Shown: positions 5,787 to 28,800 of the stretch, piece after piece | How positions within the stretch are numbered: position 1 is the stretch's first letter | How the letters are laid out: every line of letters starts with the position of its first letter | Source: Scenedesmus sp. PABB004 | Lineage: Eukaryota | Length of the DNA: 64,000 bases | NCBI GenBank assembly: GCA_014905635.1 | Contig: JABVCE010000019.1 | Span: forward strand, 248,001-312,000 | Direction of reading: 5' to 3' | Notes under the pieces: model-generated | Told to the model about the DNA's origin: nothing | The model's database searches: none | Seen by the model: the letters and a program-made list of their open reading frames with translations, nothing else | Translations under genes and position numbers: made by a program

Positions 5787-8700
5787 ATGCGCCTCGCGCA
5801 CAGGACGCGGCGGGCAGGTGCGGGCCGGCGCGGGCGGCCAAGATCGGGCGGCGCATGGGGCGGGCGGGCCCACAACGCTCGTCGCGTTGCTGCTCCCGCG
5901 AGCGGCGTGCGCGGGGGCGCGCGGGCGGGCCCCGCGGGGCGCCATCACGCGCGCCGGACCCTTTGGCGCTCACGGTGCCGCCCTCGCCGCCCGCAGGCCC
6001 GCCGCCGGCGCGCCGGCCCTCGCTGGTCGGGCGGCGCGCCGGCGTGCCGCTGCCGCCGCCGCGCCGGCTCGTCGGCGCGCGTGACGCCGAGGTGGTCGCG
6101 TTCACGGCCGAGCAGCTTCAGCAGGAGAGCCTGGAGGCGGCCGCCGCGCTGCTCGCGGCGGCCGGCGGCTCGACCGCGGGCGCGCAGGGCGCCAAGGCCA
6201 ACAACGGCCACGGCGCCAAGGCCAACGGCAACGGCGCCAAGGCCAACGGCAACGGCAACGGCGCCAAGCCCAACGGCGTGGCCAATGGCAACGGCGGTGG
6301 CAGCCGCGGGAGCTACACGCCCGTCGCCGTCGCGGCGGCCGGCGCGGCCGGCGCCGCCGACGCCACCGCCGGGCGCCACGCGAGCGGCAGCGCCAACGGC
6401 GTGGCCAGCAAGAACGGCAACGGCGCGGCCAGCAAGAACGGCAGCGGCGCGGCCAGCAAGAACGGCAGCAAGAACAGCAGCAAGAACGGCAGCAACGGCA
6501 GCAACGGCGGCAACGGCAGCGACGGCGGCGGCCCCGACGCGCGCGCCGCCGGCGCGCGCGCCGCGGCCGCGGCGGACGCCGCCGCCGCGGCCGCGGCCGA
6601 GGCGGCCGCGGCCGCGTGGGCGGGCGCCGCCGCCGCGCCGAGCCTGCCGGGGCAGCAGCTGTCGTTCACGACGTTTGACTGCGGCGTGTCTGTCAGCATC
6701 AGCCGCGAGCCCGGCGCCGCGCCGTCGGGCGACGCGCGCGCGAGCTGGGACGCGGCCGACGCGGCGACCGCGGCCGCGGCGGGCGCGAGCCCCGCGGCGC
6801 CGCCGGCGCCCGCGGCCGCGCCCGCCGCCGACGGCGCGGGCGAGCCCGGCGGCGCGCCGGCGGGTCAGGGATGCTACTATGTGCGTGTTGAGCTGCCCCA
6901 CAGCTACGGCCCGCAGTGCGTGCTGCACTGGGGCGTAGAGAACTGGGACCTCCCCCGCGCGCGTGCCAGCCGCCGCACAGCGAGGAGGTGCGCGCATGCG
7001 CCGCGCGCGCGCGCGCCGCGCCGCCGTCCGCCGCCCGCCGGCGCCGCTGCGGCCTTGGTGGTCCCCCGCCGAGCCGCCCCGCGCGCGCCCCCCGCCCCCG
7101 CCCCGTCCGCCCGCCGCGCAGGCGGGCGAGCGCGCGGTGCGCACGCCGTTTGGCCCGCTGGGCTCGGTCCCGCTGATGCCCCTGGAGCTCGGCGCGGCGC
7201 TCGCCGCCGCGGAGCGCGAGGCCGCGGCCGCCGCCGCCGAGGGCGCCGCCGCGGGCGCCGCCGAGGGCGGCGAGGGCGGCGCGGCCGCGGCGCCGGCGCC
7301 GGCGCCGGCGCCGGACGCGGCGCCGCCGGCGGCGCCCGAGGGCGCGGCGCTCGGCCGCGCCCTCGCGGCGGCCTATGCGGGCGTGCCCGACGGCACGCCC
7401 TGGGTCGTGACGCTGGCCTTCCCTGACACCCTCTGCCCAGAGCGCCTCGTGTTTGTGGTGCATCAGATGGCGACGCCCGCCAACGAGTGCGCGCGCGCCG
7501 TTTGCTTGCGCGCCGTTTGCTTGCGCGCGCGCTCGGTCGCGCGCGCCCGCGCCGCGGCCGCCGTTGTCCGACCCCGCCCGCCCGTTGGCCGCGCAGGTAC
7601 GAGGACGCGTGGGTGCGCGACCACGGCGCCAACTTCAGCCTCCAGCTCCGCTCGCCCTGCCTGGGCGACCTCGTCGAAGGCGTGCTGGCGGCCGAGGCGA
7701 CCTACGAGCAGTGGGGCCTCCTGCACAGGCGCGGCGGCGGGGCGGCGGGGGGGGGGGGGGGGGGGGGTCGGTCGGTTGATCGCTGTGTCAGCGCCGCCGG
7801 GAGGGCTTTGAGCGGGGGCTCGGGGCTCGTCAGGGGGCCGCAGCGCGGCGGCGGCCGAGCCGCGCGGGTGAGCTGCGGGCGCGAGCGAAGCGGCTGAGCT
7901 GCTCCCCGCACCTCCCCTCCCGCCCGCCCCGCGCAGGCTGCAGCGCGTGCTCGAGCTCCTGGACAATGCCGAGGCCGCCGGTGCGGCGGCGGCTCCCAGC
8001 CCGGGCAGCGGCGGCGCCGCTCCGCCGCGGGCTGCGAGCCTCCTCGCCCCGCGCCCCCCGCCCCCTGCCCTCCCCTCCTCGCCCGCGCGGCCGCTCGCAA
8101 CGCACGGACGCGCGCCGCCCCCCCCCCCCCCCCCCGCCCACCCCGGAACCCCCGCCCGCCCCTCAACCCGTCGCCGCCGCAGGCGCGGCGGGGATGGCGT
8201 TTGTGTTCACGTGGCTCCGCCTCAGCAGCAACAGGCTGCTCGACTGGCAGCGCATGTTCAGCTACCAGCCCCGCGACATCACCTGGGCGCAGCAGCAGGC
8301 GTGCCGCGGTTTAGGGGTTGTGTGTTATAAGGGTTTGAAGGTTTAGGGGGGGCTTGTAGAGGGTTCAGGGCGCGCTGTGTTTCAGCGCCGAGCCCAGCCT
8401 CGGCGGCGCGCCGCGCGGCCGCCCGGGCGGCCGTCAGCGTGCACGCGCGGCTCACATCCCCGCGAGTGTGCTGACGGCCGCCCGGCGGCCGCGCGCGCGG
8501 CGCGCGGTGCGCGGGGGCGGCGCGGCCGCACACGTGCGCGCGCGGCCGTCTGGGCGGCCGTCAGCGACGTGATCGCCGCTTTCAGCGGCGCTCACGAGCT
8601 CACGGCCGCCCAGGCGGCCGCGCGCGCGCGGTGCGCGGGGGCGGCGGGCCGGCGGCACGGCCGCGCGCGCACGCGCGCCGCGCGGCCGCCTGGGCGGCCG

Positions 8701-11496
8701 CCAGCAGGCCAGCATGCTCGGCGCTGAAGCTGTATGCAGCGTCAGCGTGGAGCATGTTGACCTGCTGGCGGCCGCCCAGGCGGCCACGCGCGCTCAGCCG
8801 CGGCGCGCGGTGTGCGGGGGCTGCTGATCGTGAGGCATGGGGCGGGCTGGCAGAGGCGGCCACGGGCGACCCCCCCCCCCCACACACACACACACACGCG
8901 CACGCACACACACACACGTGGCGGCGGCGTGCGCTGAGCTCCCCCCCCCCCCGCAAACCCAACACCCTAAACCTCGCCCATCCCGCCCCGCCTGAACCCC
9001 CCGCGCCTAAACCCTCCCGCGCAGGTCGCTGAGCGCATCGCCGACCGCGCGCGCTCCGCGCCCGACCCCGCCGTGCGCGCGTACTGCCGCGCCGTGCTGG
9101 GCAAGCTCTCGCGCGGCGGCGGCAACGGCGACGAGATCCGGATGGGCATCCTGAACGTGATGCGCGACAACGGCATCCGCGAGGGCAACCGCGGGGTGCG
9201 CGCGGCGCCCGCGCCGCGCGCGCTGCGCGCGCTGCGTGTGTGCGTGCGCGTGCGTGCGGGCTGTGGCCGGCCGTGCGTGCGTGTGGCTGCCGCGCTGTGC
9301 CGCAAGGCCGCGCGCGCGCGGCAGCGCGCCCCCATCACCGCTCCTTTGTCGCAGCCCTGACCCCGCCGCGGCCCCCCTAAACCCTCGCCCGCCGCCCCCA
9401 CAACCCCGCGCAGGGCCTCGATGAGCCCTTCCTGGAGCAGTGGCACCAGAAGCTCCACCAGGCGACCAGCCCCGAGGACGTGGTCATCGCGGAGGCTTAC
9501 CTCGCCTTCCTGCACACCGGGTCGCACGACGACTGGTGGGTTTAGGGGTTGGGGTTTAGGGCCGAGGTTTAGGGGAGGTTCAGGAGAGGTTGAGGGTTGA
9601 AGGGTTCAGGGACGGCCGGGAGCGGCCGGGGTTGCAGTGGGGCCGGGGCGCGCCGGCGCTTTCGGCGCCGCGCTCCGCGCGCGCCTCCTAAAACCCTGCC
9701 CCCGCCCGGCCCCTAAACCCCGCCCGCCCCTAAACCCCGCCGCCAGGTGGCGCGTGCTCGCCGAGAACGGCGGCATCACCAAGGAGCGCATGGAGGCGTG
9801 GGAGCAGCCCATCACGGGTGCGCGGCCGCGGCACCCGTTTCTTGTTGTTTTGTGTGTTTCTTAGTTTTTTTGTTGTTGGCTGTTGCTGCGGGCGCCGCCG
9901 CTGGCCGCTCGGTGCTGCCGGCGCCGCCCGGGGGTGCCGAGACCTACCTGCCTCGCGCAGTTGCGGGCGGTCCTGGCCACCCCCTGGCGGCGCTGGCAGC
10001 ACCGAGCAGCCCGCCGCGCCGCCCACCGCCCACCGCCCCTCGCCTCGGCCGCGTGCCTCTGTCCCTCACCACCGCCGCTGCTCGCCGCCGCTCACCGCCG
10101 CCCTCAAAACCCCGCAGCGCTGCCGATGCACCTGCCCCAGCTCATCCAGCGATCCAGGTGCGGCCCGCGCGCTTTAGGGGGCCCGCTGAACCCTCACGGC
10201 AGGGCTCAGGCAGGGGCCCTGCGGGGAGGCTGCGCCGCCGCGCCCGGGGGCGAGCGGAGCCTGCGCCGCCGCGCTCCACGCACCTCCTCGACGCTAAACC
10301 CTGCCCCCGCCCGCCCTCGCCTGAACCCCAACCCTCACAGCACTACCACTGGGTGCTCAAGGTGAGATGGGCGGCTGCCCGGTGCCGCCTGCGCCTGCGC
10401 CGGCGCAGCACAGCGCAGCGCAGCGCCGGCGCCGCGCAGCGCAGCGCAGCGCAGCGCCGTGCCTCGCCGCCCGGCCGGCGCGGCGCGACGCGCCCCCGCC
10501 CTCTGAAACCGTGCGCCCAAACCCCGCCCCGCGCGCGCGCGCGCGCGCGCCGCAGACCTGCCACTCCGGCGCGGAGCTCGACACGGCGCTGACGTGCGCG
10601 CAGGGCTTCGTGGACCCAGACCTGCGGTGCGGCGCCGCGTGGCGCCGCGCGCCGGCCCACAGGCAGCGCCCGGCGCGGCGCGCCGCTCGACCTGCGAGCT
10701 AGCAGCGGCAGCGCCGCCGCGCTCGTCTGCCTCCCTGAAAAGCCCTGCCGCCCCTAAACCCCGCCCTAAACCCCGCCCCCGCCGCCCCCCTAAACCCCGC
10801 CGCCCAGTTGGCACCTGTATGACCTGCTCGCCAACCGCAACGCCTGGTGGGCGCCCGGCAAGACGCTCGAGCTGCGCCGCCGGCTCAAGCCCTACTGGCA
10901 GGTGGGTGGTGCGGCGTGTGAGGGCTTAGGAGCGTGTGAGGGTTTAGGAGCGCTGAGCGCGTGGGCGCCTCGCGGCTGCCCCCCTCCCGTCCCCTCCCCG
11001 CGCCGCGCTGTGCCGCCGCGCGCGCGCCTCGCTCACGGAGCGCACCAGCTCCGCGCCGCTCCACCACGCACGCCCTTGACACCCCGCCCATGCCGCTTAA
11101 CCCCGCCCTTCAACCCCGCCAGGCCCCTGGGTCGAGCCGCGACCTGCTGCTGCTTGACATCGCGCTCGAGAGCTGGCTGCGCCTCCTGGTGGAGCGCCAG
11201 GACAAGCGCGCGCTCTCGGGGGACGACCTCGTGGAGCTCATGGGCCTCGTGCTCGGCAACGCCGCGCTCACGGTGCGTGGGCGCTGTCATTACTTGTGTT
11301 ATTGTGTTGCTTTTGCGTGTTCTGGGTTGAGGGCTGCGCCTGGTGGAGCTCATGGGCCTCGTGCTCGGCAACGCCGCGCTCACGGTGGGCGTGCGCTGTC
11401 ATTACTTGTGTTATTGTGTTGCTTTTGCGTGTTCTGGGTTGAGGGCTGCGCCTGGTGGAGCTCATGGGCCTCGTGCTCGGCAACGCCGCGCTCACG

Positions 11497-11593
<97 letters not shown>

Positions 11594-14500
11594 CGTGCGT
11601 GTGCGTGTGCGTGTGCGTGTGGGTGTGGGTGTGGGTGTGGGTGTGGGTGGGTGTGGGGCGCGCCGCCGCCGCGCAGTCCGCTGAGCCCCGCCGCGCCGCG
11701 CCCCACCCCGCGCCGCGCGCCGCCGCAGGGCACGTCGGCGGAGCTCGAGCTCGTGTCGGCGCAGTGGGAGGCGGTGCGCGCGTGCGAGGAGCGCTGGAGC
11801 CGCGCGTGGTGCCTCGCCGCGTCGGCCGCGCTCGGGCGCGTGACGCTCGCGCTCTCGGCCTTTGCCGACGAGATCTGCGGCCAGGTCCAGGTGCGGGCGC
11901 GTTGCTCCCCGCGCCGCGCAGCCGCGGCCGCGCAGCCAGCACGGGTGCTGCTGCCGCCGCGACGGAGCTCGCCGCGCAGCGCCGCGCCGACGCACTTCCT
12001 GGCCGCGCCAGCCCGCACTCGCCCTCATGCCACACCTCCTCCCGGCCCTCTCACGCCCCTGAACCCCCGCCCGCCGCCGCCGCCGCCGCGCAGCCGTACG
12101 CGGAGCTGTTTGGCCTGCGCTGCGGCATCCCGCCCGCGCACACGCTCAACTTCAGCGAGGAGGTGGTCCGCGACCAGGCGCTCTTCGTCGGCAGCCTGCT
12201 TGCCGCCGAGCTCGAGCCGCGCCTGCGCACCGCCGCGGGCGCGAGCAGCTGGCAGGTGGTGAGCCAGGTCGCCGCGGCGACGGGCACCGCGGTGCTGCTC
12301 CCCGACCTGCTCGGCGTGCAGGGCGTCGCGTTTGAGGCGCCGACGGTCGTGCTCGCCCAGGTGTGTGCCGCAGGTGTAGGCTCTAGGCCCTCAACCCTGC
12401 GTGCGCCGCCGCGGCTGCTCTGGGCTGCTTTGAGGTTTTCAGGCTTTTGGCGCAGCGCCGCGCCGGCACCTTTTGTTTTTCTTCACGTTGCCTCAACCCT
12501 AAAACCTGAACCCTGAACCCTTCAAACCCACCACGCCCACCGCAGGCCCTGGGCGGCATGGAGGACATCCCTGACGGCGTGGTCGCCCTGCTCACGCGCT
12601 CCTCCACCGACGTGTTGAGCCACGTCGCCATCCGCGCGCGCAGCCAGGGCGTGCTGCTCGCGGGGTGCAGCGACGAGGAGGAGTGGGCGCACCTGCTGGA
12701 GCTCGTGGTGCGCGCCGCGCCGGGGTGCAGGGCCGGGTGCAGGGCGGGCTCGGCTCTGGGGCGGCCCGGGGGCGCCGCGCTGCGCGGCCGGGGCGCTGAC
12801 GGCCCCGGCGCCGCGCCCGCCGCCGCGCCGCCGTCTCTAAACCCCGGACAACCCCGGACCCCCCCCCCCCGCAGGACCAGCACGTGAGCCTCACCGTGGC
12901 GAGCAGCGGTGACGTGATCGCCGCCGCCCTGGACGCCGGCAGCGCCGCGGCGGCCGCCGCCGCGGCCGCCGCGGCCGGCGGCGGCAGCGCGGCCGCGGCC
13001 GCGGCGGCCGCGACCGGCGCCGACGCGCCCGCGGCGCCGCGCGGCGCGCCGCCGCTGCGCACGCTGCCCGGCGCGGCATGGCGCGAGGCGGCGACCGCGC
13101 AGGGCGCGGCGTTCCTGCGCGTGCTGCAGGTGCGCTGCGTGCCGCGCGGCGCGCGCCGCGCGGCGGCGCCCGCCCCAGCCCCACCTCGCCCTCCCTCTGT
13201 GCTCTCCCGCTCCAAAACCCTGACCCCGCCGCCCCCTGCTCAACCCTAAACCCCGCCAGGAGGAGGAGTTTGGCCCGGACGTGGTCGGCGCGAAGGCCTG
13301 CAACCTCGCCACGCTGCGCGCCAAGCTCCCCGACTGGATCGCCGTGCCCCGCTCCGTGGCGTTGCCGTTCGGGACGTTCGAGGCTGTGCTGGCGCACCCC
13401 GCCAACGCGGGCGTCGCGGCGGAGCTCGCCTCGCTGGAGGCCGCGCTCGCGCGCGCCGGCGAGAGCGGCGGCGGCGGCGGCGGCGGGGACGACAAGGACA
13501 ACGCCGCGGCGTCGCCGGTCGCGCTGCTCGCTCGCATGCGGGCGCTGGTGGAGGGCGAGCTCAAGCCCCCGCCCGGCATGCAGCAGGTGGGTTTAACCCG
13601 CAGGAGGCGCTGGCCGTGAGGCGTTCGGGGCCTGGGCGGGCGTGTCGGGAGCGCCGCCCGACAGCCCCCGCCGCGCCCACCCAACCCCCGTGCCCCTCCC
13701 CCTCCCCCGCGGTCGGCGCGCAGATGGTGCACGCTGCCCTGGTCAAGGGGGGGCTCCTGGACGGCGGCGACGGCGCCGGCAGCGAGCACAGCACCGCCAC
13801 CGCCGCCAGCGACGCCGGCAGCGACGGCGGCAGCGACGGCGGCGCCGCGGCGGCCCCCGCCAACGGCACCGGCGCGAGCGGCACCGGCGCGTCCGGCGGC
13901 GCGCCGCTCGCGGCGGGGTCGGGCGCGGCGTGGGCGCCGGAGGACCCCACCTGCCCCGCGTGGGCGGCGTGCTGGGCGGCCGTGTGCGGCGTGTGGGGCA
14001 GCAAGTGGAACCACCGCGCGTGGCTCAGCCGGCGCAGCGCGGGCCTGCCGGAGGAGCAGCTGGCGGTGTCGGTGCTCATGCAGCAGGTGGGTCTGAGGCT
14101 CGGTGGCGGGTCCAGGGCTTTGTGGGTTGCGTGGTGGCGGGGAGGGGTGGGGCTTGGCTGGTGCGGTGCGGTGCGCTGGCTGGCGGTGCGCTGGCTGGCG
14201 GTGCGCTGGCTGGCGGTGCGCTGGTAGCACCCGTCGCGCCGCCCAAGAAACCCTCAAAACCCTGACCCCTCCTCAACCCTCCCAACCCTCCTAAACCTTC
14301 CTCCTAAAACCCTAAACCCTCGCCCCCCCTGTAGGTCCTGCCCGGCGAGTACGCCTTTGTGCTGCACACGGCGTCGCCCTTCAGCGGCGCGCGCGGCGAG
14401 ATGTACGGCGAGCTGGTCTGCGGCCTCGGCGAGAGCCTGGTGCGGCGGGGGTTATGGTCGAGGGCTCAGGCGGCGCCCTTCCTTCCTCCCCCCCCCCTTC

Positions 14501-16074
14501 TGTGCCTGACTCGCTCGCTGCCCCGCACGCGCCCGCCCTCGCCGCCCCGCACGCGCCCGCCCTCGCCGCCGCCCCGCCCCGCCCGCGCGCGCCTCACAGG
14601 TCGGCAACCACCCAGGCCGCCCCCTCGCCTTCAGCGACCGCCCCGACGGCTCCGACCTGCAGCTCCTCGCCCTGCCCAGCAAGCGCGAGGTGCGCCGGGG
14701 CTGAGGGTTTAGGCTAGGCCGGCCCCGCCCTCCGCGCCGCCGCGCCGGTGCCGCCGCCGCCGCGCCTGGGGCCCTCGCGCGCGCCGCCGCCGCCGCTGCC
14801 GCCGGCCGGCCGGCGCGCAGCCCCCGGTCCTCGAGCCCTCGAGCTCAACCCCAGCGCGCTCAACGCCCGTTAAACTCCTAAACCCTGAACCCCAACCGCT
14901 AACCGCCGCCGCCGCACAGGGCCTGTACGCGCCGCCCGGCGGCACGCTCATCGCGCGCAGCGACACGAACGGCGAGGACCTGGCCGGCTACGCCGGCGCG
15001 GGCCTGTACGACAGGTGCGGCGCGCTGTGTTGCGCTTGATTGATTGCTTGTTTATCTGGTTGTTTGTCTGTCTGTTTTGATTGTTCGATTGCCGGCGCGG
15101 GCCTGTACGACAGGTGCGGCACGCTGTGTTGCGCTTGATTGTGTCAGCACACGGGGCACTGCTGACCGCGGCGCGCCGCCGCTGCTGCCCCTCCTGCGCC
15201 TCGTGCCGTGTCGTTCTGATGCGCCCCGGCCCCGCCGCTGCCGCCTCAACATCAACCCCTCAACCCTCAACCCTGTCAACCCCCCCGCCGCCCCGCCCGC
15301 CGCGCCCGCCCCGCCCCGCCCGCCCCGCCCCGCCGCCGCGCGCGCAGCATCCCCGTGACGCCGCTGACGCCGCGCTTCCCCGACTATGCGACCGAGCCGC
15401 TCATGTGGGAGGCGCCCTTCCGGCAGCAGCTGCTCGACGGCCTCGTGGAGCTCGGGTGCGCCAGGGTTGAGGCGGGGCCGCGGGCCGGGCAGGTCGCCTG
15501 GGAGGCGGGCCAGGGAGCCGGCGCAGCACCGGGGCGAGGGCACAGGCTGAGCACAGGCTGAGCGCAGACTGAGCAGCGCCGCCGCCGCCGCCGCTACCGC
15601 TGCATGACCCTTCAATCCTAAACCCTGCCGCCGCCGCCGCCGCCGCGTCTCCGCTGCGCAGCTACGCGGTGGAGAGCGCCTTTGACGGCACGCCGCAGGA
15701 CATCGAGGGCGTGTGGCTCGGCGGGCGCTTCGCGGTGGTGCAGTCGCGCCCGCAGGTGCGCCCCCGGGGCGGCGCGGCGCGCGCGGGAGGGGCACCGGCC
15801 GGGGCGGCGCGGCAAGCGGGGCACACGCAGGCCGCCGCGCTGAGCCGGCGCCGCGCCCGCGCCCGCGCCGCGCGCTCCGCAGGTCATGCACGGCTGCGCC
15901 GGGGGCGGCGACGGCGGCGGCGCCGCGGCGCGCGCGTCGTCGTCGGCGGGGCGGCAGCGTGCCAAGGCACTCGCCGCGGCCGAGGCGGCCGAGGCGGCGG
16001 CCGCCGTCGCGGCGGTGCGCGAGGCGGGGCCGGGGCTCGCCGCGGGCAGCGGGGAGTGGGAGTGGGAGTGGTGA
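5787..16074 (+). CDS. GWD: Alpha-glucan water dikinase (plastid), roughly 25 exons
   Basis: CBM45-like LHWGV..W..PP..TPF; GGNGDEIRMGIL; EQWHQKLHQATSPEDVVIAEAYLAFL; phospho-His motif DVLSHVAIRAR; VGAKACNL; VWGSKWN; LVCGLGESLVGNHPG; RSDTNGEDLAGYAGAGLYDS; QDIEG..VVQSRPQ. One 1-nt frameshift in the C-run at ~6952-6956. Confidence 0.95.
8413..8820. ncRNA. Intronic array of three long hairpins (candidate pri-miRNA cluster)
   Basis: Three units, each with left arm GCGGCCGYCYGGGCGGCCGYCAGC and a complementary right arm, enclosing different self-pairing inserts; compensatory changes between units. Confidence 0.55.
11228..11498 (+). repeat. Tandem duplication (~112 bp unit) of a GWD exon 3' end, donor and intron start
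   Basis: GTGGAGCTCATGGGCCTCGTGCTCGGCAACGCCGCGCTCACGGT occurs three times (~11231, 11343, 11455). Confidence 0.95.
11500..11655. repeat. (GT)n microsatellite degrading into (GTGC)n/(GTGTGG)n
   Basis: About 90 bp of pure GT followed by variant units, inside a GWD intron. Confidence 0.98.
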
Positions 16075-20613: not shown

Positions 20614-20744
20614 ACAGCAGACCTCGCCCGAGCTTTGCCCGGGGCCGACTCCACCGCCGCCGCCGCGCAGTCGCAGTGTGCGCGCCCTCTCTCTCCGCCG
20701 CCCCGCCGCGCCCTGCACCCCGCTCGCCCCGCCGCCGCCGCCGC

Positions 20745-21020
20745 CGCCGGTGGCTCAGCCGAGTCGCGTGCTCTTGGCGAGGCGGGCCTTGATGCTGCCG
20801 CCGCCGGTGGCTCAGCCGAGGCGCGTGCTCTTGGCGAGGCGGGCCTTGATGCCGCCGCCGGTGGCTCAGCCGAGGCGCGTGCTCTTGGCGAGGCGGGCCT
20901 TGATGCCGCCGCCGGTAGCTCAGCCGAGGCGCGTGCTCTTGGCGAGGCGGGCCTTGATGCTGCCGCCGGTGGCTCAGCCGAGGCGCGTGCTCTTGGCGAG
21001 GCGGGCCTTGATGCCGGTCG
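20745..21020 (-). repeat. Five tandem copies (54-57 bp) of the Sas10 final codons plus stop
   Basis: TCAGCCGAG..CGTGCTCTTGGCGAGGCGGGCCTTGATG starts at 20755, 20812, 20866, 20920, 20974. Confidence 0.97.
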
Positions 21021-25854: not shown

Positions 25855-28800
25855 ATGTCCTGGCTCACGCCGAGCCACATCGAGGACGCAGCCCGCGTGC
25901 TGCGCGGCGTGGCGCTCGTCCTGGCGCGCGCCGCGGCGGACAGGTGCGCGGCGCGAGCAATTGACGTGCCAGCGCGCGCGCGCAGGGCGTGGCGGCGCGC
26001 GCGCCGGGCACCGCCGCTCGCTCTGTGGCTGCCGCTGCTCGGCGCCGCCCGCCGCCGCCCAGGCGCCCCCGCGCCCGCCGCCCGCGCCTCCACCCGCCCT
26101 GGCACGCCCCACAGCGCCAGGAGCCGCGCGGCGGTGAGCCAGGCGCACGCGGCGGTCAGCGCAGCGGCGGAGCTCGTCGCGGCGCAGGCGGCGCGCGCCG
26201 CGCAGCCGCCGCACGACGCCGACGCGCCGGCGGCGGGCGCGGCGGCCGCCGCCAGCAGCAGCACGCTGGCGCGGTACCTGTTCCCCGAGACGCTGCGCCT
26301 GGCAGCGGCGGCGGCGCAGGCGGCGCCGCACCGCGCCGGCGCGGCCGCGTGGCCCGGCGGCGCCTGGCAGGCGCCTGCGGTCGACGCGGCGGGGACGCCC
26401 GGCGGGGAAGCGCCGGCGCCGGCCAGCCCGCCGCCGAGCAGTCGCACGGCGCGCAGCCCGTGGCCGAGCCCCTGCAGCCGCAGGCGGCGCCGGCGCCCGA
26501 GCCAGAGCCCGCTTCATCGGCCGCGGCGGCGGCCGAGCAGCGGCGGCAGCAGGAGGAGCAGGAGCAGGAGGCGCGGCGGCTGGAGCAGGCGCGGCAGCAG
26601 GAGCAGCAGGCGCGGCAGCAGGAGCAGGCGCGGCAGCAAGAGCAGGAGCGGCTGGAGCAGCAGGAGCGGCAGCAGGCGCAGGCGCGGCAGCAGCTCGAGC
26701 AGCAGCAGAGACTGCAGGCGGCGGAGGAGCAGGCGCCGGAGAAGCGGGAGCACATAGAGACGTGGATGTCTGGCCATGAGAGCGTGACGACGGCAGCCGA
26801 GGCCAGCGCCGCGCCCGCCGCCGTCGCAGCGGCCGCACCCGGCGGCGCCGCCGCGCCGCCGGCGCAGCAGCAGGCGGCTGCCGAGCCCAAGCGCGTGCTG
26901 CGCGAGCGCCGGTGCGCGGGCGCGGCGTGGGGCCCGCGCGCGCCGGCACCCGCCGCGCCGCTGCGCGCCCGCCGCGGCTCACGCGCGCCGCGCCCTGCCT
27001 GCCCGCCCGCCCGCCCGCTCCCGCCCGAGCAGCGTGCCCTCCACGCAGCTCGGCCGCGCGTTTGGCTTTGCCCAGATGGGCGCGTCGCTGCTGCTCGGCT
27101 CGCTCGCTGACAGCATTGCGCGCCCCTTTGCCGGCGGCGGCGACGCGGGCAGCAGCACGGGCGGCGACGCGAGCGCCAGCGGCGGCACCGGCGGCGGCGG
27201 CAAGGGCCTGTATTCAAACATCATTACAGAGAGCAACGCGGAGCGCCTCGCCAACGCGCTGTGCCGCATGCGCGGCGCGGCGCTGAAGATTGGTCAGATG
27301 CTGTCCATACAGGACGAGAGCGTGGTGCCGCCGCAGGTGTGCGCGTGTGCGGGTGTGGGGCCCGTGGGCGGGGCCTCGACCTGAGCGCGTGGGTGTGGGT
27401 GGGCGTAGGGCGTGGGTGGGCGCTGCGAGCAGCGTCCGTGCTCACGCGCGCGCGCCGCCGCCGCCGCCGCCGCGTGCGCTGCGTGCGCCGCGTGCGCCGC
27501 CGCAGATCCAGGCCGCGCTGGAGCGCGTGCGCGCGGGCGCCGACGTGATGCCGCGCGCGCAGCTCGAGGCGCAGCTTGTGGCAGAGCTCGGCCCCGACTG
27601 GCGGGCGCGGCTGGCCGACTTTGAGGACGCGCCGCGCGCCGCCGCGAGTATCGGGCAGGTTCACGCCGCGACGCTGCACGACGGGCGGCGCGTCGCGATG
27701 AAGGTCCAATACCCAGGTGGGCGTTGGACCCTCGCCGGCGCGGGGCTCAGGGTTTTGGGGGGGGCGGGCGTCGCTCGCGGCGGCGCGCCCGGGCTGTCCC
27801 TGCTCCTGCGCACGCGGAAACGCAGCCCCGCCGCTGAGCCCCCCCTCTCCTCCCTCCCATCCACCTGCCCACCCGCCGCCCACGCCCCCCCTCCCCCCCC
27901 CCCCCCGCCCGCTCAGGCGTCGCGCGGAGCATCGAGAGCGACGTCGACAACCTCATGCGCCTCGTGAGCCTCGCCAACGTGCTGCCGCGGGGAATGTATG
28001 TCGAGAACGCGGTCAAGGTGCGGCGGCGGCGGCGGGTGCTCGGCGCGCTTGGGGTTAAGGGTTTTTGACACACACACTCGAACCGCTGTGAGAGGCGTCT
28101 CACAGCATTCCCTGCTCAAACGAACAGTTGGACGGACGATTTGGCGCCGACACCCCCCCCCCCAACACACACACACACACCACACGCCCAATGCGCTGCA
28201 CCCCGCCGCCCCGCCTCGCCCGCGCGCGCAGGTGGCCAAGCGCGAGCTCGCGCTCGAGTGCAACTACGCGTACGAGGCCGCCGCGCAGGAGCGCTTCAGG
28301 GGGCTCGTCGCCGCCGACCCGGAGCTCAGCCGGGTGCGGCGCGGCGCGGCGCGGCGCGGCGCGTCGCCGCGCAGCGGCGCCGGGGCTCGGCCCCGGGGCG
28401 CGCGGGGGAGGGGCATGCGGCGCGGCGCGCGCCGACGGAAACAGAGCCGCTGTGCCGCCGCGCCCCGCCGCGGCTGCCGCTGCTCCCTAAACCCTGCCGC
28501 TTGCCTGCGCCCCAGGCGTTCCACGTCCCGCGCGTCATCCCAGACCTCTCCAGCCGCCAGGTGCTCACGACCGAGTGGGTCAACGGCGTCACCATCGACA
28601 AGGTGCGCGGGGTTTAGGCGCCGCGCCTGCACCCTGGCCCGCCACCGCGCGGCACGCTAGGGCGAGGCTGCCCAGCTCCGCGCCGCGCGCCCGCCCCGCG
28701 CCCCACGCGCCCCGCAACCGGGCCCGGCGCCGGCGCCGCCGCCGCGCCGGCGCAGGTGGCAGAGCTGGGCCAGGACGTGCGCGACGCGGTCGGCACGCGG

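Follow-up and report, generated by a model that had tools for sequence, protein, structure and literature searches.

The 64-kb window analysed here, a stretch of contig JABVCE010000019.1, carries on its plus strand a starch-metabolism gene that, judged by sequence comparison, encodes a glucan-water-dikinase (GWD), and one intron of this gene harbors an array of three hairpin-forming units. A tblastn search with the closest named ortholog, P0011 of Tetradesmus obliquus, aligned 19 exon pieces along 7383-15758, mostly 79-98% identical, with three at 51-66%. Among the four exon translations tested, one, that of a downstream exon, matches the Pfam family PF22973 (GWD phosphohistidine domain) with an E-value of 1.7e-14. 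For one exon, the best protein matches share 48-65% identity, and an identical protein is not on record for it. The G+C content of the window is 67-83% per kb, and that of the alga ~78%, compared to roughly 64% for the genome of Chlamydomonas reinhardtii. The high G+C content, together with a closest named ortholog from T. obliquus, therefore indicates that the organism is not C. reinhardtii; the sequence places it as a very GC-rich chlorophycean alga near Scenedesmaceae.

The boundaries of the host intron are fixed by the ortholog junction, where P0011 reads ...TWAQQQ/VAERI.... The intron has the ends CAG/GCGTGC...CGCGCAG/GTC with a GC 5′ splice site, and comparison with the ortholog junction revealed no GT-AG alternative that keeps the frame. 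We delimited 13 introns in the GWD gene, in addition to two gene stretches that were unresolved into introns. At 726 nt, the host intron is the longest of the 13, in agreement with an earlier first-pass annotation of this DNA, and the remaining 12 span 157-461 nt. Excision of 8376-8935 would leave an intron of ~166 nt, and 10 of the 12 other delimited introns are 157-245 nt long.

The three units (8406-8500, 8530-8632 and 8672-8796) share the same modular organization, in which a left and a right arm enclose a core and a tail follows the right arm. The arms of 27-33 nt and the tails of 17 nt are alike between units (76-100% identical), whereas the cores of 31, 32 and 58 nt in units 1, 2 and 3, respectively, have no similarity to each other (local-alignment p of at least 0.06). 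The arms are ~90% G+C, the arm pairs are 89-91% complementary or better, and the starts of successive arm copies lie at regular distances of 127 and 140 nt. In unit 3, the arms overall extend to 54 nt and are 89% complementary, leaving only a 4-nt TATG loop between them. The tail GCGCGGTGYGCGGGGGC occurs without mismatch three times in the window, once after each right arm. The first-pass annotation had already described the three units, their mutually unrelated inserts, the tail after each unit and the long stem around TATG, and both the places of the units and the insert lengths were confirmed. Moreover, the 18-nt core of each arm, CGGCCGCCYRGGCGGCCG, is palindromic in itself, a feature that the first-pass annotation does not mention. 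The array can therefore be viewed as a single palindromic core that is present six times, its orientation alternating from copy to copy. The right arm, the tail and the following left arm of adjacent units are likewise able to pair.

The three-hairpin arrangement is real and statistically strong. On the sense strand, the RNAs of units 1, 2 and 3 fold at -87.3, -100.1 and -121.5 kcal/mol, with z-scores of -8.4, -12.4 and -12.5, and none of 200 shuffles was as good for any of them. The stems contain 38, 42 and 52 Watson-Crick pairs, respectively, in addition to 1-2 G.U pairs and 1-5 single mismatches per unit. Folding of the complete intron, which had been proposed as a check, gave a z-score of -12.9 over 20 shuffles, with all three stems present in both the minimum free energy (MFE) and the centroid folds. 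Each insert had also been said to fold back on itself. This holds for cores 2 and 3, which fold strongly when taken alone (Table 1), but barely for core 1, whose fold is equalled by 15 of 200 shuffles. In a gapped self-complement census of the window, the top two of the best 22 of 205 candidates are units 3 and 2, in this order, and most of the others among these 22 lie in DNA of at least 88% G+C. Unit 1 is below the listing threshold of this census, and an ungapped hairpin scan recovers unit 3 only. The coordinates of the modules and of the adjoining features are listed in Table 1.

Table 1. Features of the host intron and its hairpin array (positions in the window)
Feature	Position	Strand	Remark
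Host intron of the GWD gene	8299-9024	+	GC-AG, 726 nt; ortholog junction
Tail-like remnant GGCGCGCTGTGT upstream of unit 1	8369-8380	+	11/12 match to unit 3 tail; p ~0.04, uncorrected for 12 tests
Unit 1 left arm	8412-8438	+	
Unit 1 core, 31 nt, weakly self-pairing	8439-8469	+	fold -12.4 kcal/mol, z -1.7
Unit 1 right arm, one base shorter than left arm	8470-8495	+	
Tail copy 1	8502-8518	+	0 mismatches
Unit 2 left arm	8533-8565	+	33-nt arms, 91% complementary
Unit 2 core, 32 nt, self-pairing	8566-8597	+	fold -20.1 kcal/mol, z -5.0
Unit 2 right arm	8598-8630	+	pairs with unit 2 left arm
Tail copy 2	8626-8642	+	0 mismatches
Unit 3 left arm	8679-8705	+	94% identical to unit 1 copy
Unit 3 core, 58 nt, near-perfect inner hairpin around TATG	8706-8763	+	fold -41.0 kcal/mol, z -6.8
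Unit 3 right arm	8764-8790	+	pairs with unit 3 left arm
Tail copy 3, T variant	8805-8821	+	0 mismatches
Eroded solo right-arm copy 3′ of unit 3	8846-8868	+	8854-8868 = 14/15 of unit 3 right arm; GCTGGC precedes; p ~0.03, uncorrected for 12 tests
(CA)n microsatellite between poly-C runs, in expanded middle of intron	8881-8917	+	

Low fold energies also occur elsewhere in the window. The regions 6500-7400 and 12900-13180, which are 93-99% G+C, reach energies as low as those of the array (-106.7 kcal/mol at 12946-13055). Their folds are low-complexity pairing with several loops, and part of this DNA is low-complexity coding sequence of GWD. In addition, a fourth hairpin with a stem of ~55 bp (9890-10024) is located in another GWD intron. 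Its sequence has no relation to that of the array, and its antisense RNA fold (-126.3 kcal/mol) is more stable than the sense fold (-117.4 kcal/mol, z -9.6).

Comparison of the two strands revealed that the pairing of the array is not specific to its transcript. The antisense RNAs of units 1, 2 and 3 fold at -86.5, -93.8 and -120.1 kcal/mol, close to the sense values, and the corresponding single-stranded DNAs give z-scores of -9.0, -11.7 and -10.8. All three units, as well as two of the three cores alone, are palindromes at the DNA level. The transition mismatches of the stems comprise five G.U and two C.A on the sense strand, the latter being would-be G.U pairs on the antisense strand, with no significant bias. 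The arms had further been described as covarying. Over the three units, 23 of the 27 arm pairs are invariant, one has a one-sided change and two differ by unpaired cells only, which leaves one clean double change, from U-A to C-G in unit 3. This change bears out the first of the two cases that had been cited, whereas the second faces a deleted base in the right arm of unit 1. The observed covariation score was reached by 148 of 500 shuffles, a comparison of low power with three sequences only. The tests that could be run are all either neutral or point to the DNA level.

Small-RNA production from the array is nevertheless conceivable. With 38-52 Watson-Crick pairs and few mismatches, the stems are structurally adequate for Dicer, and each single-transcript foldback has room for a well-paired 21-nt duplex, as in a microRNA (miRNA) precursor. 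The hairpins might thus be Dicer substrates and the intron a polycistronic precursor of small RNAs, either miRNA-like or hairpin-derived small interfering RNAs (siRNAs), whether selected or as a by-product; the basal stems and tails would then position the cuts. The much higher conservation of the arms and tail compared to the cores is consistent with such a role. We nonetheless consider this explanation unlikely. An Rfam search of the region 8100-10200 (E-value up to 10) gave six matches, none of which reached the gathering score. Unit 3 does match miRNA models with an E-value of 1.8e-08, but the best model, mir-4529, has a gathering score of 88 and yields 50.8 bits, or 50.5 bits when the opposite strand is scored. 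Being both sub-threshold and the same on the two strands, the match is that of a generic hairpin. Nor is a small-RNA role favored by the wobble pairs, which have no strand bias, or by the covariation, which is not significant, and arms that are self-palindromic and ~90% G+C would be unusual for guide RNAs. Moreover, the cores have no match of at least 14 nt elsewhere in the window; the longest, of 13 nt, lies in the same intron at 8381-8393 in the opposite orientation. In the same Rfam search, a cluster of intronic small nucleolar RNAs (snoRNAs) of the C/D or H/ACA type was also considered and rejected, with no match to any snoRNA model and units that are paired almost throughout.

The first-pass annotation drew its small-RNA interpretation from Chlamydomonas, where many miRNAs are cut by DCL3 from intronic or UTR hairpins. 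The premise is correct for C. reinhardtii, in which nine of the high-confidence miRNAs are intronic and the hairpins yield DCL3-dependent miRNAs independently of splicing (PMC4817775); the window, however, is from another organism. No usable result came from a literature search for RNA interference genes in Scenedesmus or Tetradesmus. To our knowledge, no miRNA system has been described in sphaeroplealean algae. Paralogous miRNA hairpins normally conserve the miRNA duplex itself, so that the arms rather than the cores would be the small-RNA product if the units were such paralogs. A more specific version, in which the array would be a natural short hairpin RNA (shRNA) cassette, with the conserved basal stem and 3′ tail as a processing scaffold and the three upper stems diced into three small RNAs, is in our judgment very improbable. 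Neither the covarying scaffold nor the small-RNA cassette is supported by any test that was run.

The distribution of the arms and tails is local. With up to one mismatch, the arm motif has nine matches in the 64 kb, all at 8415-8787, compared to 0.15 expected; with three mismatches allowed, seven of nine matches lie in the array, and the two elsewhere, with three mismatches, are at chance level. The close matches thus fall entirely within 8411-8787. The tail with up to two mismatches has 15 matches compared to 4.4 expected, and the three exact ones are all in the array. Within the window, no close copy of the arm motif and no exact copy of the tail was found outside the host intron. Beyond the window, when metagenomes were scanned for the 24-nt arm pattern, 22 loci were recovered, all in bacterial-looking and coding-looking DNA of 61-77% GC. 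As all 22 are single arms without a partner in high-GC DNA, we take them as chance matches.

These data bear on whether a mobile foldback element, of the type of a miniature inverted-repeat transposable element (MITE), landed several times in the intron. The mobile unit could be read in two registers, either as arm-core-arm or as right arm-tail-left arm. Inverted terminal arms of 27-33 nt are in line with such an element, and the second register would account for two further features: its internal part, the tail, is conserved between copies, and the non-homologous cores would be leftover host sequence. MITE hairpins are also a recognised source of new miRNA genes. By contrast, there are no copies beyond the host intron in the 64 kb, and all metagenome matches are partnerless. 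In one register the units are flanked by runs of CG, in the other by unrelated sequence, and neither shows a visible target-site duplication. Furthermore, the single orientation and the regular spacing of the units fit tandem duplication better, and palindromic cores are unexpected if they derive from the host. We therefore regard repeated insertion of a mobile element as distinctly unlikely.

Another alternative is that the hairpins are a selected RNA structure that compacts a long intron by folding away ~400 nt, so that the 5′ splice site and the branch point become effectively close. The presence of all three hairpins in both folds of the complete intron agrees with this idea, as does the typical size of ~166 nt that remains once the array and the adjoining microsatellite are subtracted, and the other GWD intron with an insertion-like hairpin (9890-10024) has the same pattern. 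However, a strand-specific signal is missing, any palindromic insertion compacts an intron automatically without the need for selection, and GWD introns of 333-461 nt do without a comparable hairpin. Compaction as the selected function is the explanation to which we give the least credence.

The explanation we favor, with about even confidence, is that GC-rich quasi-palindromic foldback repeats formed a local array, thereby lengthening an intron that was ordinary and short, and owe their lasting symmetry to processes at the DNA level. These alternatives concern function or origin, and some of them are compatible with a foldback array. We propose that a palindromic unit was duplicated locally to give the array, and that its symmetry would be made and renewed by DNA-level processes acting on the hairpins. 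During replication, template switching between arms (quasi-palindrome correction) would transfer a change from one arm to its partner and can generate a perfect stem in a single event, whereas repair at the hairpin tip may rewrite the apex, which would make a core self-complementary yet different in each unit. Alternatively, an ancestral perfect palindrome might have received independent insertions at its centre, which would have become the cores. Once transcribed, the units would form three very stable stem-loops in the pre-mRNA that are removed with the intron; small RNAs, if any were diced from them, would be a by-product rather than the reason for the array.

Several observations are consistent with this scheme. 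They include the near-equal folding of both strands, the lack of a sense-strand bias among the transition mismatches, the restriction of the arm motif and exact tail to this intron within the 64 kb, the regular arm spacing, the length of ~166 nt left without 8376-8935, and the unrelated fourth hairpin with its more stable antisense fold. Eroded tail-like and arm-like pieces are found at both edges of the array (p ~0.03-0.04, uncorrected for 12 tests). The gene undergoes local tandem duplication elsewhere too, with a 112-bp tandem repeat of 2.4 copies at 97% identity (11227-11498). Template switching has been documented to build perfect stems and to mimic compensatory changes without selection (PMC8794818). 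The first-pass annotation had named a tandem family of miniature foldback elements as its second option, and this comes close to the best-supported explanation in view of the folding of both strands, the confinement to one intron and the eroded edge copies.

Other observations weigh against a foldback array maintained at the DNA level. The arms and tails are conserved while the cores are unrelated, a sharp contrast, and the one feature that duplication followed by neutral decay does not predict. An extra assumption is therefore needed, be it apex rewriting, independent insertions or selection on the arms, among which hairpin-associated mutation would be the most economical addition to plain duplication. 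Tandem Repeats Finder did not call the array as a tandem repeat in the window; the arm copies are regularly spaced and the tails recur, but the cores are non-homologous. No hairpin in the 64 kb is stronger than units 2 and 3, so the array is not simply genome background. The one clean compensatory change is equally compatible with selection on RNA pairing and with template switching, and the latter is a process that we infer for this array.

Further features were observed in the GWD gene and the rest of the window. The 112-bp tandem repeat begins inside a GWD exon, the ortholog match of which ends at 11272; the end of this exon and its 5′ splice site are therefore repeated in the next intron. 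Two tandem repeats with a 54-bp period are present at 20740-21016 (5.1 copies, 96% identity) and 26546-26692 (2.6 copies, 82% identity). The last 70 nt of all 13 delimited GWD introns (7730-15662) are strongly C-rich, with a G-C skew of -0.36 to -0.85, and the first 70 nt are G-rich in eight of the 13 (skew +0.15 to +0.79). TTYAGGG motifs are located near the 5′ ends of three GWD introns, and CCCTRAA motifs near the 3′ ends of about nine, possibly in the branch-point region. Intron-specific pairing between the two ends was rejected: the duplexes of an intron's own ends average -54.5, compared to -55.7 across introns and -52.5 for shuffles. As own-end pairing is no better than cross-intron or shuffled pairing, the complementarity of the intron ends is compositional only.

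If the array is only a set of foldback repeats, it provides a small but clear example of an intron made more than four times as long by palindromic DNA. In addition, it illustrates how symmetry at the DNA level can imitate the covarying scaffold signature of structured RNAs, which calls for caution in scans of GC-rich genomes. Should small RNAs indeed arise from it, amplified palindromes would be shown to give rise to hairpin-derived small RNAs in green algae of a lineage other than Chlamydomonas.

Among known systems, the array resembles the intronic miRNA hairpins of C. reinhardtii, such as that in the cre-miR1157 intron. In that chlorophycean alga, protein-coding genes likewise carry long, GC-rich and near-perfect stem-loops in their introns (Valli et al. 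2016, PMC4817775). They differ in that the hairpins of C. reinhardtii are defined by sequenced DCL3-dependent small RNAs, whereas the array is known from sequence alone. Moreover, the array belongs to a different organism and consists of three hairpins with common arms and a common tail, both strands of which fold equally. Polycistronic miRNA clusters also have several hairpins in a row on one transcript. In the animal mir-17~92 cluster and the plant MIR395 arrays, the conserved part is the miRNA duplex and is known from reads, whereas the units of the array are not recognised by Rfam models. The criteria for plant and algal miRNA and hairpin-siRNA precursors used here are reportedly those of Axtell and Meyers (2018).

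The array also resembles the quasi-palindromes generated by template switching (Monttinen and Loytynoja 2022, PMC8794818), in which inverted repeats stay complementary and apparent compensatory changes arise by mutation, with no need of selection. The mechanism in that study was derived from ancestral reconstructions, whereas we infer it for the array. In addition, the published cases are single stems, compared to three units with a common tail in the array. Loytynoja and Goldman (2017) are said to have dealt likewise with template switching and quasi-palindromes.

Similar to MITEs and foldback transposons, the array has short, inverted terminal arms that form hairpins when transcribed, and such elements are often intronic. 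It differs from them in that neither dispersed copies nor target-site duplications were seen in the 64 kb, and in that its units are arranged in tandem, in one orientation and with unrelated interiors. A literature search for GC-rich palindromic intron repeats in green algae gave organelle papers only. As the miRNA class fails in the Rfam test and the MITE class fails on dispersed copies in the data examined, we place the array among the hairpin-forming tandem or foldback repeats, a known kind of which it is an unclassified member.

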